Assembly (NCBI GenBank): GCA_035629395.1
Contig: DASPHZ010000056.1
Location: 38,905 to 70,904 of the forward strand
Length of the DNA: 32,000 nt
Source: Thermoanaerobaculia bacterium
GTDB taxonomy: Bacteria; Acidobacteriota; Thermoanaerobaculia; Gp7-AA8
Reading direction: 5' to 3'
Shown in pieces: positions 9,069 through 20,499 of this stretch. Position numbers and translations under genes: made by a program. Under the pieces are notes generated by a model that saw only the letters and a program-made list of their open reading frames with translations, ran no database searches and was not told the DNA's origin. The first letter of the stretch is position 1; each line of letters opens with the position of its first letter.

Positions 9069-9200
9069 ATGTCATTCCTCTGGATCACCAAACGCCCCGG
9101 CCAGCGCGTCCGCGGCGGGGGCTGCATCGGGTGCGTGCCGTTCGGGTGTCTGCCGGTCCTCGCCATCGTCGCGGGGGCGTTGGCGTGGGTGATGGCGTGA
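9069..9200 (+). CDS. Candidate small Cys-rich membrane peptide (43 aa)
   Basis: Below the track length cut-off. My translation: MSFLWITKRPGQRVRGGGCIGCVPFGCLPVLAIVAGALAWVMA*. 40 of 43 codons end in G or C, as in the clear genes here. C-terminal hydrophobic helix. Only a weak SD (GGCGAGG). No homology evidence. Confidence 0.3.
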   Translation: MSFLWITKRPGQRVRGGGCIGCVPFGCLPVLAIVAGALAWVMA

Positions 9201-9201
9201 G

Positions 9202-10269
9202 CTACTCCGCGTAGGCATCGCCAGGCTCGTAGCGCCACTCGGTCTGGTGTTTCGCGCCTTCGGCGAAACGGGGGTCGACGTACTCTTCGAAGGCGATGTC
9301 GCGATCGAGGACGCCCGTCTCGCGCATGAGCTTCACGATCAGCTCGAAGTCGCTGCGCAGCGGCGTGAGCGGCTGGTACTGCACGCGATCGACGGGATTG
9401 GTCAGCGCCCACTTGAGGAGGCGCGGGTCCTGGCGAAAGTAGAAGCGGCCGACAAAGTCGGCGGCATGCTCGCGGCGCGCGCGGCGTTTGGGAGGGTTCT
9501 CGAGCCAGAGGCCGGAGCGCGCGATGCCGTCCACGAGCACCTGCACGGCTTCCGGTTTGCGCGCGATCGCGTCTTCGCGCACGACGAGGACGCACGAGAT
9601 GTAATCCGGCCAGTATTCGCGCGCGTGAAAGAGGATGCGGCCGAAGCCGGCCATCTCCGCCTGCGACGGATACGGCTCGCCCATGGAGAACGCGTCGATC
9701 GCGCCGGCGGCGAGCGCACCGGCCACGTCCGGCGGCGCCATCTCCACCATGCGCACGTCCTTCGCGTCCATGCCGTTCTTGGCCAGTGCGCGGAAGAGGA
9801 TGAGGCGCTCATCCGAGTAGCGGCTCGGAATGGCGATGGTCCTCCCCTGCAGATCGGTGAACGACTGCACCGGTCCGTTTTTGTGCACCACGACGGCGGA
9901 GCCGTAGCGGTGTCCGAGGTAGACGATCTTCACTGGGACGCCCTGAGCACGCAGGGCGATGGCCATCGGTGCGACCATGAACGCCGCCTGCATCTGATTC
10001 GAGATCAGCGCTTCCTTGATCTCGGGAAATCCCTGGAACATGCGAGGGATGAACAGATGACCCGACTTCGAGTAGGCGGAGATGTAGTCCGTCACCGGGC
10101 ACGCCAGATGTCACGTCACCGGAATGTACGCCACGTTCAGCTTGCGCTGGCTCTCCGGCAGCCGCTCATTGAGCAGCACCGTCCAGTCGACGTTCGTCGA
10201 CAGATGCAGCGCGGTAATGACCGCGACCCAGGCCAGCAGCCCGAGCGCGATCTTGCGTGTCGATGTCAT
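9202..10269 (-). CDS. ABC transporter periplasmic substrate-binding protein (NitT/TauT, SsuA/NMT1-like) interrupted by a single in-frame TGA at 10113..10111 (candidate selenocysteine codon, pseudogene or sequencing error)
   Basis: Track ORF 9202..10095 holds most of the SBP (…AIPSRYSDERLILFRALAKNGMDAKDVRMVEMAPPDVAGALAAGAIDAFSMGEPYPSQAE…). The same frame continues upstream to ATG 10269..10267, which has a strong RBS (AAGGAGGtgcttcATG), giving MTSTRKIALGLLAWVAVITALHLSTNVDWTVLLNERLPESQRKLNVAYIPVT-[TGA]-HLACPVTDYISAYSKSGHLF. 10269-9202+1 = 1068 nt = 356 codons; the TGA is codon 53. Confidence 0.8.
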
Positions 10270-10290
10270 GAAGCACCTCCTTTCTGGCGA

Positions 10291-10486
10291 GATGGAGCGA
10301 CGTGGTTGAGCGATGGAGCTGTTGAGCTGTTGAGCTGTTGAGCCGTTGAGCTATAGAGCGGTAGAGCTATAGAGCGGTAAAGGGGCTCCGCCGCCCCATC
10401 CCCTCTATCGCTCTACAGCTTTACAGCTTTACAGCTCAACGGCTCAACAGCTCAATCGCTCCATCGCTCCATCACTCAACAGCTCC
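10291..10486. repeat. Long imperfect palindrome (about 85-95-nt arms) built from tandem 8-nt units (NNTTGAGC / NNTAGAGC / TGTAAAGC)
   Basis: Left arm: gatggagc..gatggagc tgttgagc tgttgagc tgttgagc cgttgagc tatagagc ggtagagc tatagagc ggtaaagg. Reverse complement of right arm: ggagc tgttgagt gatggagc gatggagc gattgagc tgttgagc cgttgagc tgtaaagc tgtaaagc tgtagagc gatagagg. Symmetry centre is near 10392 (GC-rich loop ggggctccgccgcccc). By eye the arms are about 75-80 percent complementary. It sits in the 231-bp gap between the permease stop and the SBP start. Confidence 0.85.
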
Positions 10487-10500
10487 GCGGCCCCTCCTCC

Positions 10501-11307
10501 TCACTCACTAAACGACCACTTCACAAACCTCAGCTTCTCGGTGCGGCGGATCAGCGCGTCGAGCGCGAGTCCGATGAAGCCGATGAGCAGCATGCCGCCG
10601 ACGACGAGGTCGTAGCGTTTGCCGGCGTTGCGCGCGTCGATGATGAGGTAGCCGAGGCCGGAGTCGACGGCGATCATTTCCGCCGCGACGAGGACGAGCC
10701 ACGCCACGCCGAAGGCGATGCGCAGTCCGACGAGGATGCGCGGCAGCACCGCGGGAAACACGACGCGTACGAGGAGGGCGCGCGTGGAGAGTCCGAAGTT
10801 GCGGCCCGCCTGCACGTAGACCGGCGGCACGTTGCGCACCCCGTTCATCGTCGCCACGACGATGGGAAAAAACGACGCGAGAAAGATCAGAAAGATCGGC
10901 GCGAGATTACTGACCCCGAACCAGATCACCGCGAGCGGCATCCACGCCAGCGGCGAGATCGGCCGCAGCATCTGGATGAGCGGATTCGCGGCGCGTGCGA
11001 GCGACGACCACCAGCCGAGGGCGAGACCGGCGGGCACGCCGAGCAGCACGGCGGAGAGATAGCCGGCGGAAACGCGGAAGAGAGAGTCGCGCGTGTACGC
11101 GGCGAGATGCGGAAGCTCGGTGAGCCCGCGGAGAACGTCGAGAGGAGACGGGAAGATCGTGGTGGCGGTCACGATCACGGCGAGATGCCAGAGCACGAGA
11201 AGCAGAACGCAGAACGCAAAACGCAGGACGAAGAATGGAAAAAGGACGGCGACAGTGCGCGCCCCCTTTCTGCGTTCTGCGTTCTGCGTTCGGCGTGTGG
11301 CGTTCAT
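10501..11307 (-). CDS. ABC transporter permease (NitT/TauT family, SsuC/TauC-like), copy 2
   Basis: Track ORF, 268 aa. Typical BPD-transporter permease with multiple TM helices and the loop region AGRNFGLSTRALLVRVVFPAVLP. By eye about half identical to the 12042..12893 product. ATG 11307 lies 3 nt after the ATPase stop. Confidence 0.9.
   Translation of the reverse strand: MNATRRTQNAERRKGARTVAVLFPFFVLRFAFCVLLLVLWHLAVIVTATTIFPSPLDVLRGLTELPHLAAYTRDSLFRVSAGYLSAVLLGVPAGLALGWWSSLARAANPLIQMLRPISPLAWMPLAVIWFGVSNLAPIFLIFLASFFPIVVATMNGVRNVPPVYVQAGRNFGLSTRALLVRVVFPAVLPRILVGLRIAFGVAWLVLVAAEMIAVDSGLGYLIIDARNAGKRYDLVVGGMLLIGFIGLALDALIRRTEKLRFVKWSFSE
11203..11293. repeat. Hairpin of 7-nt tandem units inside the 5' coding region of permease copy 2
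   Basis: cagaacg cagaacg caaaacg caggacg aaga (11203-11234) against ttctgcg ttctgcg ttctgcg ttc (11268-11291). cagaacgcagaacg is perfectly complementary to cgttctgcgttctg. About 35-nt loop. Confidence 0.8.
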
Positions 11308-11310
11308 GTT

Positions 11311-12045
11311 CTAGACCTGATGCGCGAGTCCAATCTCGCCGAAGATCTCGTCGCGCAGGGCGATATAGCGCGGATCGGACAGATCGCGCGGGTGCGGGAT
11401 GGCGACGTCGAGCACGCGGCGAATGCGGCCCGGACGCGCCGAAAGCACGACCACGCGGTCGGCGAGCTGCACCGACTCCTCGATGTCGTGCGTCACGAAG
11501 AGGATCGTTTTCTTCTCCGCCTGCCAGATGCGCAGCAGCTCGCGGCGCATCTGCAGACGCGTGATGGAGTCGAGGGCGCCGAACGGCTCGTCGAGGTAGA
11601 GCACGTCCGGATTCACGGCCAGCGCGCGCGCCACTTCGAGGCGCTGCTTCATGCCGCCGGAGAGCTCGCGCGGATAAGCCTCTTCGAATCCTTTGAGACC
11701 GACGAGCTGCACGTAGTGGGCGATGCGCTCGCGCTTCTCCGCGTCGCTCTGCCGAAACAAGCCGAAGCCGATGTTCTCCTCGACGGTGAGCCAGGGGAAC
11801 ACGCCGCGCTCCTGGAAAACGAAGATGCGGCGCGGATCGGGTCCGGTGACACGCTCGCCGTCGATCGTGACCTCTCCTTCCGACGGCTGCAGGAAGCCGC
11901 CGACGATGTTGAGGAGCGTCGACTTGCCGCAGCCGGAGGGGCCGAGGAGACAGACGAATTCGCCTTCGCGGACGGAGAGGTGGACGTCGTCGAGCACCCG
12001 GTTGCCGCCGAACGTCTTGCTGATGCCGGAGAAGACGACTTTCAT
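11311..12045 (-). CDS. ABC transporter ATP-binding protein (NitT/TauT family)
   Basis: Start ATG 12045..12043 (MKVVFSGISKTFGG...) overlaps the upstream permease stop as ATGA. Walker A GPSGCGKST, signature LSGGMKQR, Walker B VLYLDEPFGALD, H-loop FVTHD. The longer track ORF (to 12555) is an artefactual upstream extension. Confidence 0.92.
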   Translation of the reverse strand: MKVVFSGISKTFGGNRVLDDVHLSVREGEFVCLLGPSGCGKSTLLNIVGGFLQPSEGEVTIDGERVTGPDPRRIFVFQERGVFPWLTVEENIGFGLFRQSDAEKRERIAHYVQLVGLKGFEEAYPRELSGGMKQRLEVARALAVNPDVLYLDEPFGALDSITRLQMRRELLRIWQAEKKTILFVTHDIEESVQLADRVVVLSARPGRIRRVLDVAIPHPRDLSDPRYIALRDEIFGEIGLAHQV

Positions 12046-12893
12046 TCGGCGGCGTAACCCCAGCGCACCCCCGGCAGTCGCTCGAGGGCACGCATCAGCA
12101 AGTCGAGCAGCACGCCGATCGCGCCGATGAGGATCATGCCGGCCACGACGAGATCGTAGCGGTTGCCGGCGTTGCGCGCGTCGACGATGAGAAAGCCGAG
12201 GCCGGAGTTGACGGCGATCATCTCCGCGGCGACGACCACCAGCCAGGCGATGCCCACGGTGATGCGCATCCCCACGATGAGCTGCGGGAGGATGGCCGGG
12301 ACGATCACGCTGCGTACGAGCTCGCGCGTGGTGAGGCCGAAGTTGCGGCCGGCGGCGAGATGCACGCCCTCGATGTTGTGCACCGCGTTGACGGTCGTCA
12401 GTGTGAGCGGCAGCACGGAGGCGAGGAAGATCAGGAACACGGCCGCGAGATCGCCGACGCCGAACCAGAGGATCGCGATCGGAATCCACGCCAGCGGCGA
12501 GATCGGCCGCAGCAGTTGCAGGATCGGATTGATGGCCACTTCCCCGCGGCGCCACAGCCCGAGGAGCACGCCGGCGGGAACCGCGATGAGAAGCGCGGCG
12601 AGATACCCCCAGGTCACGCGAAACAGCGAAGCGACGATGTAGCGGACGAGCAACCCCTTCTCGGCCAGCTCGACGATGCCGAGGATCGCCTGCAGCGGCG
12701 ACGGCACGAGCGTCCCCGGCGACGTCGCGACGAGGACGTGCCAGAAGAGGAGAAAAAGGAGGATGCCGGTGAGAGGGAGAAAGTGCCGCAAGCGAGCTCG
12801 GGGGGAGGGTAGCAGAGTTTTAGAGGATGAATGCAGAATGCAGAACGAAGAAGCCGGCGCATCCGCCTCCTTTCTTCCTTCATCATTCTGCAT
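12042..12893 (-). CDS. ABC transporter permease (NitT/TauT family), copy 1
   Basis: C-terminal part of the 1187-aa track ORF 12042..15605. The first in-frame ATG that gives a sensible protein is 12893..12891 (MQNDEGRKEADAPASSFCILHSSSKTLLPSPRARLRHFLPLTGILLFLLFWHVL...). An internal TTG (…ARLRHF) is an alternative start. Paralogous to 10501..11307. Confidence 0.85.
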   Translation of the reverse strand: MQNDEGRKEADAPASSFCILHSSSKTLLPSPRARLRHFLPLTGILLFLLFWHVLVATSPGTLVPSPLQAILGIVELAEKGLLVRYIVASLFRVTWGYLAALLIAVPAGVLLGLWRRGEVAINPILQLLRPISPLAWIPIAILWFGVGDLAAVFLIFLASVLPLTLTTVNAVHNIEGVHLAAGRNFGLTTRELVRSVIVPAILPQLIVGMRITVGIAWLVVVAAEMIAVNSGLGFLIVDARNAGNRYDLVVAGMILIGAIGVLLDLLMRALERLPGVRWGYAAE

Positions 12894-18817: not shown

Positions 18818-18877
18818 TCGTGTGTCCTCCGCCGTCAGAAAGAGCAATCCGCACGCCGTTTGCACCCGTTGCAAGCC

Positions 18878-19201
18878 GTGCAGAAAGAAATCGAGCGCAA
18901 CGACTGGCCGGTATTTTTCGAGTCCTTCACTCTCTCGCACGATCACTGGCTCGTGAGCGTCGACGGAGAGAAGGAGACTCTGCCGCTGGAAGGGATCATC
19001 GCCCGCGAAGATCAGATCGTCATCCGTCTGGGCGGCGACATCAGTCATCACCGCCGCATCGTCATCGACGGCGACCGCGTGACGGTGCAGCAGCGGAACG
19101 GCGTCGACGAAGGTGTAACCATCCTCTCGAAAGACGGACACACGACGCGACTGCAGTTCCGCTCCCCCATGCCGCCGGAGCTCGTGGACGGGATCGCATG
19201 A
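18878..19201 (+). CDS. Small DUF5335-like protein (start uncertain: TTG 18860, TTG 18869 or GTG 18878)
   Basis: C-terminal part of track ORF 18083..19201: (V)QKEIERNDWPVFFESFTLSHDHWLVSVDGEKETLPLEGIIAREDQIVIRLGGDISHHRRIVIDGDRVTVQQRNGVDEGVTILSKDGHTTRLQFRSPMPPELVDG. Its stop overlaps the next ATG (ATGA at 19198-19201). The family call is from memory only. Confidence 0.6.
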   Translation: MQKEIERNDWPVFFESFTLSHDHWLVSVDGEKETLPLEGIIAREDQIVIRLGGDISHHRRIVIDGDRVTVQQRNGVDEGVTILSKDGHTTRLQFRSPMPPELVDGIA

Positions 19202-20499
19202 ATCTCGACGCGCTGCGCGGCGCCATGCATCCCGTGACCGGCGATCCGGGCGATTACGACGCGCTGCTCGAACAGATCGGCGACGCGCGCATCGTCTGCA
19301 TCGGCGAGGCTTCGCACGGCACGCACGAGTTCTATAGCGAGCGCGCGAAGATCACGAAACGCCTCATCGACGAGAAAGGCTTCAACGCCGTGGCCGTCGA
19401 AGCGGACTGGCCGGACGCGTTTCGCGTGAACCGCTTCGTGCGCGGACAAAGCGACGACGTCGGCGCGATCGAGGCGCTGGATGGATTCAAAGCGCGCTTC
19501 CCGACCTGGATGTGGCGCAATGCGGACGTGCTCGACTTCGTCGGCTGGCTGCGCGCGTTCAACGACGCCATCGAAGACGAATCGCAGCGCGCGGGCTTCT
19601 ACGGCATCGATCTCTATTCGCTCTTCTCGTCGATGGAGGCCGTGATCCGCCATCTCGAAGAGATCGACCCGCAGGCCGCGAAACGCGCGCGCGAGCGCTA
19701 CTCCTGTTTCGACCATTACGGCGAGGAAGCACAGTCGTACGGCTACGCCGCCGCGTTCGGCGCGGGCGAGTCGTGTCAGGAAGAGGTGGTCAAGCAGTTG
19801 ACTGAATTGACGCGCCGCGCCGCGGAGTCGGAAGAGTTCTTCTCCGCCGAACAGAACGCGCGGCTCGTGGCAAACGCGGAGGAGTACTACCGGTCGATGT
19901 TCGCGGGGCGGGTTTCGTCATGGAACCTGCGGGACCGGCACATGGGCGAGACCATCGAGGCGCTGGTGGAGTTCCTCACACAGCACACCGGCCGGGCCAA
20001 AGTCGTCGTCTGGGCCCACAACTCCCACCTCGGCGACGCCCGCTTCACCGAGATGGGGCAGCAGGGCGAGCTGAATGTCGGCCAGCTCATGCGCGAGCGC
20101 TACAACGAGGAGGCGTTTCTCATCGGCTTCAGCACCTACACCGGGACGGTCACGGCCGCTGACGACTGGGACTCTCCCGCCGATCGCAAACGCGTGCGCC
20201 CCGCTCTCCGCGGCAGCTATGAAGACCTCCTGCATCTCGTCTCGACGTCGCCGTACTACCTCACCTTCCGCGGCGAAAGCGTGGCCGCGCAGGAGCTGCG
20301 CGAGGCGCGCCTGCAACGCGCGATCGGTGTGATCTACCGCCCCGACACCGAACGCCAGAGCCACTACTTTCACGCCCAGCTCCCCTACCAGTTCGACGCC
20401 ATGATCCACTTCGAGGAGACGAGAGCGGTGGAGCCACTCGAACGCACCGCGCGCTGGCACGAAGGCGAGCCGCCGGAGACGTATCCGACGGGGATCTGA
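19198..20499 (+). CDS. Erythromycin esterase (EreA/ChaN-like) family protein
   Basis: Start ATG 19198 within track ORF 18820..20499. MNLDALRGAMHPVTGDPGDYDALLEQIGDARIVCIGEASHGTHEFYSERAKITKRLIDEKGFNAVAVEADWPDAFRVNRFV...VVWAHNSHLGDAR... is typical of the family (IGEASHGTHEF, AHNxH). Confidence 0.85.
   Translation: MNLDALRGAMHPVTGDPGDYDALLEQIGDARIVCIGEASHGTHEFYSERAKITKRLIDEKGFNAVAVEADWPDAFRVNRFVRGQSDDVGAIEALDGFKARFPTWMWRNADVLDFVGWLRAFNDAIEDESQRAGFYGIDLYSLFSSMEAVIRHLEEIDPQAAKRARERYSCFDHYGEEAQSYGYAAAFGAGESCQEEVVKQLTELTRRAAESEEFFSAEQNARLVANAEEYYRSMFAGRVSSWNLRDRHMGETIEALVEFLTQHTGRAKVVVWAHNSHLGDARFTEMGQQGELNVGQLMRERYNEEAFLIGFSTYTGTVTAADDWDSPADRKRVRPALRGSYEDLLHLVSTSPYYLTFRGESVAAQELREARLQRAIGVIYRPDTERQSHYFHAQLPYQFDAMIHFEETRAVEPLERTARWHEGEPPETYPTGI

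Follow-up and report, generated by a model that had tools for sequence, protein, structure and literature searches.

The stretch examined here is a window of 32,000 nucleotides (nt) from a Thermoanaerobaculia bacterium of the Acidobacteriota (GenBank assembly GCA_035629395.1, contig DASPHZ010000056.1, positions 38,905 to 70,904), and it carries a four-gene ATP-binding cassette (ABC) operon in the order permease-ATPase-permease-substrate-binding protein, an order that is the same in relatives. The last of these genes, encoding the substrate-binding protein (SBP), contains an in-frame TGA at codon 53, in the context AYIPVT-U-HLACPVTDY. Comparative analysis suggests that the gene very probably encodes one continuous, exported ABC SBP in which this UGA is decoded as selenocysteine (Sec, U) by SelB and tRNA-Sec. 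The features of the operon, in window coordinates, are as follows:

10276 to 10283, minus strand: ribosome-binding site AAAGGAGG, read from the sequence, 6 nt ahead of the ATG at 10269-10267
9202 to 10269, minus strand: putatively Sec-containing SBP gene of the NMT1_2 / NitT-TauT type, 355 amino acids plus stop (from translation, Pfam and orthologues)
10189 to 10269, minus strand: N-terminal signal peptide or membrane anchor, approximately residues 1-27, with an R-K pair at residues 5-6
10111 to 10113, minus strand: UGA codon 53, very likely read as Sec (from the TGA/TGY distribution, the tree and the Sec machinery)
10099 to 10101, minus strand: Cys57 codon TGC, a nearly invariant Cys and the partner of Sec53 in U-H-L-A-C
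10501 to 11307, minus strand: ABC permease 1 (BPD_transp_1), from profile matches, a neighbour kept in 71 of 81 loci
11311 to 12045, minus strand: ABC ATPase, whose ATG at 12045 overlaps the stop codon of permease 2 (ATGA)
12042 to 12893, minus strand: ABC permease 2, with an uncertain start (ATG 12893 or TTG 12791)

The initial annotation of this stretch, made without database searches, had described a ribosome-binding site, an ATG at 10269 and a hydrophobic N-terminus leading in frame into an SBP body interrupted by a single TGA, and this description was borne out. The hydrophobic helix spans residues 3-24 in an AlphaFold2 (AF2) model, the start position is kept in orthologues, and the anchor region upstream of the TGA is conserved across them at the protein level. 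Both flanks of the TGA are in frame, and past it the reading frame stays open until the TAG at 9204-9202 with no second defect. A reassigned genetic code had been considered unlikely from the start; because TGA serves as the normal stop codon of both permease genes and of at least six others in the window (including those for sigma, anti-sigma and erythromycin esterase proteins), the code is standard and reassignment is excluded.

The TGA is a shared character of a large group of relatives. Once species-representative genomes had been scanned, the set comprised 106 related loci, of which 98 possessed an in-frame TGA at the codon 53 column and the remaining eight had TGC or TGT; the TGA-bearing loci yielded 75 distinct full-length sequences (hereafter Sec-type) with protein identities of 69-92%. 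The first genome search had recovered this TGA in 23 members of the source genus at species level, the source genome included, and in one species of another family within the order, together with TGC in two other genomes of the class. Cys occupies the TGA column in all 20 full-length database homologues that were aligned (349-359 amino acids), and neither a residue other than Cys nor a gap was found at this column among close homologues lacking the TGA. The alignment proposed in the initial annotation thus came out in favor of its candidate Sec, and the U/C-x-x-x-C pair that it had recognized is a property of the family, with Cys at the TGA column of the non-TGA homologues.

Selection on the two flanks is consistent with a single product. 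The 52 codons before the TGA are conserved at the amino-acid level with synonymous variation among orthologues, and the five codons H-L-A-C-P, which separate the TGA from the start assigned in databases, likewise keep their amino acids while varying at synonymous sites. Because the peptides on both sides are conserved in this manner, both sides of the TGA are translated in one frame, and, as judged from these alignments, the UGA and the reading frame on either side of it are under purifying selection across roughly 90 species.

A homologue is present in 17 genomes of an even sample of 300 Acidobacteriota species plus the source genome, and within that sample the TGA form is limited to the source family (four genera) and one sister family. 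A maximum-likelihood phylogeny built from 101 sequences requires 10 changes between the Sec and Cys labels, with at least seven of them forced by well-supported branches. The Cys-type sequence P0002 (87% identical) is nested in the clade of the source genus, and its TGT codon is one base from TGA. Most close relatives in the database, at 86-92% identity and from Thermoanaerobaculia metagenome-assembled genomes, and about 90 of the best 120 matches overall, are annotated as 297 amino acids long, starting at a GTG (Val59) six codons past the TGA. A representative that is 45% identical (P0127) was called as 296 amino acids beginning at the equivalent of Val59, the same truncation signature, and this far more distant lineage may carry a Sec codon too.

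The components required for Sec incorporation were named in the initial annotation as a further check, and they are encoded in the genome: selA (485 bits), selB (376 bits, matching the full length of the model), selD (375.9 bits) and a tRNA-Sec (70.9 bits; anticodon TCA by ARAGORN). As selA was detected in 41 of the 41 relatives searched, co-occurrence of the TGA with the Sec machinery is uninformative. Combining the distribution of TGA and Cys codons with the presence of this machinery, the TGA at codon 53 in all likelihood encodes Sec. Other probable selenoprotein genes of the same genome, the last three from a crude genome scan, are:

C13, 8896-9822: selD, with its own in-frame TGA in the motif TTGG-U-ACK
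C45, plus strand, offset 23267: formate dehydrogenase (FDH) with the motif ARI-U-HSSTV; the UGA is followed by 11 nt and then GGUGCCC-GGUCU-GGGCACC, with the loop at nt 22-26
C84, plus strand, offset 145583: PrdB/GrdB-like gene with the motif U-P-M-C and the hairpin AUCAGGCC-GUG-GGCCUGAU
C38, minus strand, offset 16283: possible thioredoxin-like gene with W-U-H-T-C

Canonical Sec insertion sequence (SECIS) hairpins are present in the FDH, SelD and PrdB/GrdB-like genes, and from these sites it follows that the SelB of this organism normally meets hairpins like those of E. coli at the textbook distance. In the established description, 11 nt separate the UGA from a minimal SECIS stem with G23 and U24 in the loop (PMC8659212), the apical loop lies 16-37 nt from the UGA (PMC10778597), and bacterial SECIS elements are held to sit directly after the UGA (PMC10778597, PMC8659212).

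The SBP gene departs from this description, and the departure weighs against Sec insertion at codon 53. Numbering the mRNA from the U of the UGA (nt n is window coordinate 10114 - n), single-sequence and RNAalifold folds of nt 0-50, 0-75 and 0-100 revealed no conserved local SECIS hairpin, RNAalifold gave approximately 0 kcal/mol for the local region after the UGA, and no canonical hairpin with an apical loop 16-37 nt past the UGA was present. Similarly, Rfam returned no SECIS or riboswitch, either in a permissive scan of the region or in a scan of the whole window at gathering thresholds. The modest downstream structure that the initial annotation had drawn, GGCG...CGCC around CCG-GUGA-CGG, does exist in this copy, but most orthologues could not form it (42 of 75 have C in place of G9, and 58 of 75 have ACC or ACT in place of ACG), and it was rejected as a conserved element. 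The amino acids that follow the UGA (H-L-A-C-P-V-T-D-Y-I-S) may simply be too constrained to encode a canonical hairpin. On this reading, the hairpin would have been placed downstream and docked by long-range pairing.

Patterns of synonymous variation point to where such an element may lie. Synonymous-site diversity was calculated from a codon alignment of the 75 Sec-type genes, normalized per amino acid, in windows of nine codons. The eleven lowest-diversity windows of 214 all fall at codons +40 to +61 and the twelfth starts at codon +5. The two most constrained segments of the Sec-type genes are codons +4 to +12 and +41 to +59 (nt 14-40 and 125-175). Several codons in these segments are effectively frozen, including Pro+5 as CCG (75 of 75), Asp+8 as GAC (75 of 75), Leu+53 as CTG (75 of 75), Ala+55 as the rare GCT (70 of 75) and Cys+4, the codon of Cys57, as TGC (74 of 75, compared to a mix of TGC and TGT in Cys-type genes), while Pro, Ala and Ser codons elsewhere in the Sec-type genes vary freely. 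Neither segment is constrained in 18 Cys-type genes, where the corresponding windows are unremarkable (ranks 31 and 54 of 177, with rank 174 for window +52). The RNA elements defined in this region are:

10074 to 10100, minus strand: block A, 5' strand of the proposed duplex, nt 14-40 (frozen synonymous sites, constraint ranks and pairing)
9962 to 9989, minus strand: block B', 3' strand of the proposed duplex, nt 125-152 (strongest synonymous constraint of the gene in the Sec-type set; best partner of block A)
9939 to 9958, minus strand: hairpin B, CGCCCUG-CGKGCU-CAGGGCG, nt 156-175, the candidate SelB-binding hairpin (paired bases and ensemble probability)

The proposed fold was derived by folding nt 10-200 of each Sec-type mRNA and averaging the pair probabilities. 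In this fold one set of pairs joins nt 14-21 and 24-29 to nt 137-147 and 150-152, and another joins nt 33 and 35-40 to nt 125-130 and 132 (both with probabilities of approximately 0.6-0.9), followed by a perfect 7-bp hairpin, nt 156-162 with nt 169-175, around the loop CGKGCU (approximately 0.95). The same arrangement is the minimum-free-energy structure for the source gene's own sequence. It distinguishes Sec-type from Cys-type genes: the mean ensemble probability of the duplex is 0.76 in 75 Sec-type mRNAs versus 0.06 in 17 Cys-type mRNAs, that of hairpin B is 0.93 versus 0.21, and only one Cys-type gene, a TGT copy, keeps the long-range structure. The six core base pairs of hairpin B are formed in 75 of 75 Sec-type sequences and all seven in 74, versus three of 17 Cys-type sequences on either count. 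When Sec and Cys lineages were compared in phylogenetically independent contrasts, the intact form of hairpin B was associated with Sec in about five of six cases and never the reverse.

Further support comes from the register and covariation of the pairing. Standard pairs occupy 94.6% of the pair cells in the alignment (A3), compared to 33-47% when the partners are slid by 1-3 columns. Pair 36-129 covaries as C-G (66), U-A (2), A-U (1) and G-C (1), pair 33-132 as C-G (53) and U-A (3), and none of 500 shuffles reached the observed number of doubly changed cells or of pair types. Of all downstream segments, the one starting at nt 124 pairs best with block A, with a mean of -27.9 kcal/mol over the 75 sequences, and is also the least variable (standard deviation 2.1). 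A pairing in which block A binds nothing but the 3' arm of that hairpin (nt 12-17 with nt 171-176 of the hairpin B region) is possible, though it was superseded by the stronger duplex of nt 14-40 with nt 125-152.

The geometry of the fold suggests a mechanism. Hairpin B begins 153 nt from the UGA along the linear sequence, but the duplex of approximately 21 bp loops out about 84 nt of coding sequence, and the path from the UGA to the hairpin B loop through the structure amounts to about 22 nt (10 nt, the closing pair, 3 nt and 7 nt). The duplex starts at nt 14, approximately where the mRNA emerges from a ribosome that has the UGA in its A site. Pairing of nt 14-40 with nt 125-152 would dock hairpin B some 22 nt from the UGA through the structure, and the docked hairpin would then serve as the SelB-binding SECIS. 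The recoding signal of the SBP gene is probably non-canonical; that this particular fold is a functional looped-out SECIS is a candidate explanation with close to, or slightly under, an even chance of being right.

Several observations weigh against the looped-out SECIS. Its free energy is no better than that of dinucleotide shuffles (z = 0.02), its probability falls to 0.59 when 330 nt and to 0.32 when 600 nt are folded, and the source copy contains competing partners for block A near nt 366 and nt 451. One of these, GGCGGAGAUG (encoding A-E-M at approximately 9660, nt ~448-460), is complementary to CAUCUCCGCC of block A over 10 nt without a mismatch, though it is more variable across species than the partner at nt 125-152. 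The covariation is confined to two pairs, the fold was derived from the same sequences that were used for counting, and the test on independent contrasts reaches a median p of only 0.06.

The main rival reading, though a doubtful one, is that Sec is inserted by way of a minimal local hairpin and that the long-range fold does another Sec-linked job, such as shielding the untranslated downstream mRNA from Rho or RNases during the pause at the UGA, or selenium-dependent regulation. The candidate hairpins, C17-G18-G19 with C23-C24-G25 around a U-S-A triloop, or CCG-GUGA-CGG, contain GUGCCCGGU, as does the organism's FDH SECIS, and block A matches the 5' arm and loop of that element (GGUGCCC-GGUCU). 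A 3-bp hairpin can form in every codon variant, and ACG is always accompanied by GUG, a combination that would produce a GUGA tetraloop, while GUC with ACG was never seen. Such a hairpin would also stand directly past the UGA, where bacterial SECIS elements are held to lie (PMC10778597, PMC8659212). However, three base pairs are far weaker than the 6-8-bp stems of the FDH, SelD and PrdB-like genes, the GGU would be 4 nt nearer to the UGA than in those genes, and the features of block A alone do not track the switches between Sec and Cys, whereas hairpin B does.

Decoding of the codon without SelB or selenium, by leakage of UGA-C to a near-cognate tRNA (Trp or Cys) or another suppressor, is very unlikely. 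The context would permit it, as UGA-C is the weakest termination context and C follows the UGA in all copies, and no canonical local SECIS is present. Against this, the column is strictly Cys and never Trp in all non-TGA homologues, selA is present in all TGA-bearing genomes searched, and plain leakiness needs no RNA structure, whereas here a Sec-specific structure accompanies the TGA and decays once the codon has become TGY. The arrangement implied by database annotation, in which a 52-residue membrane peptide and a separate 297-residue cytoplasmic protein starting at the GTG of Val59 are made as two products, is less probable still. The prevalence of that start among the matches described above speaks for it. 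Against it, the H-L-A-C-P codons between TGA and GTG are conserved as amino acids and match the full-length Cys-type proteins, the frame between the two parts is unbroken in 98 loci, no ribosome-binding site precedes the GTG, and an importer has no use for a binding protein that lacks a signal peptide. Finally, a recent pseudogene or a miscall of TGC, TGT or TGG, options left by the initial annotation because the gene is intact but for this single defect, can be dismissed, as a base-call error is not tenable for a TGA that recurs in about 98 independent assemblies, and its conservation down to 69% protein identity, with purifying selection on both flanks and no secondary defects, does not fit a private nonsense mutation.

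Taken as a continuous Sec-containing protein, the product belongs to a well-populated fold. It matches Pfam NMT1_2 (8.8e-33; 114.6 bits against a gathering threshold of 24.7), and cognate permease and ATPase genes lie in its operon. No NCBIfam cut-off was reached (TIGR01728, SsuA_fam, 125.4 versus 163.5; TauA models 45-55 versus 300-490). By family profile, 3UN6 ranks first among known structures (E = 1.9e-74); it is a binding component from S. aureus that was deposited with zinc, and His occupies its Sec53 column. The next structural matches are the NrtC/CmpC regulatory domains, TauA, SsuA and NrtA, with THI5 and DszB more distant. Among 38 diverse relatives at 25-47% identity the residue aligned with Sec53 is Cys, Asp, His or Ser, mostly followed by His, and the second Cys is shared only by the nearest subfamilies, as C-H-L-T/A-C-P. 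Sec53 adjoins the conserved His54 and lies four residues before the conserved Cys57, and Cys226 is invariant among close homologues. By homology, Sec53 would lie in the beta1-alpha1 loop where the cleft between the two lobes opens; in the AF2 model, residues 46-48 form a strand and a helix begins at residue 58, with low confidence there.

This placement allows for speculation on the transported ligand. The sharing of one column by Cys, Asp and His, combined with a zinc-bound relative, suggests a cation or thiophilic ligand, and a soft metal ion or complex, or a reactive sulfur or selenium species, is our guess. Sec53 would most likely ligate or covalently capture the ligand, Sec in place of Cys would raise affinity or nucleophilicity, and the two permeases and the ATPase of the operon would import what is bound. 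This functional assignment is weakened by the moderate quality of the AF2 model (mean pLDDT 69.5, and 51-55 around residue 53, from a shallow alignment) and by the gene neighborhood, which provides no clue to the ligand as the ABC genes alone are conserved. The other recurrent neighbors, by inspection of their open reading frame translations, are KsgA, a MoxR-like ATPase, DUF58 and BlaI/BlaR1, all housekeeping or lineage-specific and unrelated, and no copper, MerP or DsrE genes were found in the neighborhood of the SBP gene. With regard to export, canonical twin-arginine signals of the form RRxFL occur in many remote relatives (RREFLK, RRDFIK and RRQFL in alignment A2), while the source SBP has R-K (T-R-K-I-A-L) and some orthologues R-R; judged from these motifs, export of the SBP by the twin-arginine route is possible.

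Additional features of the window were noted. The 232-nt gap between permease 1 and the SBP gene is filled by an imperfect palindrome (10305-10485) of tandem 8-nt units, (GCTGTTGA)n facing (TCAACAGC)n. Convergent with the SBP gene is a 43-codon Cys-rich open reading frame with one transmembrane segment (9069-9200, plus strand), for which no homologue was found among 80 related loci and which, on that distribution, appears to be lineage-specific or spurious. The spans 1197-3074 (minus strand) and 18820-20499 (plus strand) were noted in connection with a BlaR1-type M56 peptidase fused to ankyrin repeats and an erythromycin-esterase family gene, and in relatives a BlaI-like repressor lies beside a homologue of the BlaR1-type M56 peptidase.

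Compared to characterized systems, the SBP most resembles the binding proteins of NitT/TauT-type importers (SsuA, TauA, NrtA/CmpA) and 3UN6, with which it shares the Pfam families NMT1_2/NMT1 and the combination of NitT/TauT-type permeases with an ATPase. The fold matches 3UN6, TauA (6SSY) and SsuA (2X26/3UIF) with TM-scores of 0.61-0.66 by query and 0.65-0.77 by target. It differs from these in its unique conserved U/C-H-L-A-C-P motif, and no characterized member contains Sec. More distant fold matches (TM approximately 0.5-0.57) to the desulfinase DszB, whose catalytic residue is Cys27, and to THI5 illustrate that a cleft of this type is able to accommodate a catalytic Cys or His, although both are cytoplasmic enzymes without transporter partners. 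A Sec in the predicted cleft, where relatives have Cys, Asp or His, points to import of a thiophilic ligand and makes the protein a target for ligand discovery.

At the RNA level, hairpin B is similar to canonical SECIS elements, both that of E. coli fdhF and those of the organism's own FDH, SelD and PrdB-like genes, in having a G/C-rich 7-bp stem with G at the second loop position and, through the proposed structure, a loop at a distance of about 22 nt from the UGA, which agrees with the 16-37-nt rule. The difference is the 153 nt of linear separation, which needs the long-range duplex of approximately 21 bp, and no natural bacterial precedent for a looped-out SECIS was found in the literature searched. 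If the looped-out SECIS is real, Sec recoding in bacteria would not be confined to hairpins immediately 3' of the UGA, which would explain why SECIS-based predictors miss a class of selenoproteins.

The closest parallels are the first Sec-containing ABC binding proteins to be described, SaoB (with a CU motif) and SaoX (TU at residues 191-192), encoded in the nine-gene SAO locus of anaerobes; that study knew of no earlier Sec-containing ABC binding protein, and SECIS servers failed on both genes (bioRxiv 10.1101/2022.07.06.499078). A 2026 catalogue of prokaryotic selenoproteins lists SaoX, SaoB, SaoP and a BtuF-type protein but neither a binding protein of the NMT1_2 or NitT/TauT type nor an entry with U-x-x-x-C (PMC13188914), and the Sec-containing SBP family described here is absent from NCBIfam. 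It would be a widespread selenoprotein family of soil Acidobacteria, with about 90 species representatives and hundreds of metagenome sequences, and only the third or fourth transporter binding-protein family with Sec. The public 297-residue records, which lack both the signal peptide and the key residue, can now be corrected.

The likeness to SaoX and SaoB is extensive. All are binding proteins of ABC importers with Sec or Cys in the predicted ligand cleft, gene callers have truncated or split all of them, each occurs in both a Sec and a Cys form, SECIS prediction by server fails for each, and SaoX has the same SsuA/NMT1-like fold. Conversely, the SBP scores 64.8 bits against the NF040735 (SaoX) cut-off of 300 and has no match to NF040727 (SaoB) in NCBIfam; its motif is U-H-L-A-C rather than the CU of SaoB, and its Sec lies at residue 53 in the N-lobe, as U-x-x-x-C, while that of SaoX lies at 191-192 (TU, or CC in homologues). 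The genomic settings differ as well, with a four-gene ABC operon here in place of the nine-gene SAO neighborhood, and hosts among soil Acidobacteriota (Thermoanaerobaculia) rather than the anaerobic Firmicutes, spirochaetes and Deltaproteobacteria that carry SAO. Because the score, the position of Sec and the locus all set it apart from SaoX, the SBP represents a further, independent family of the same kind.

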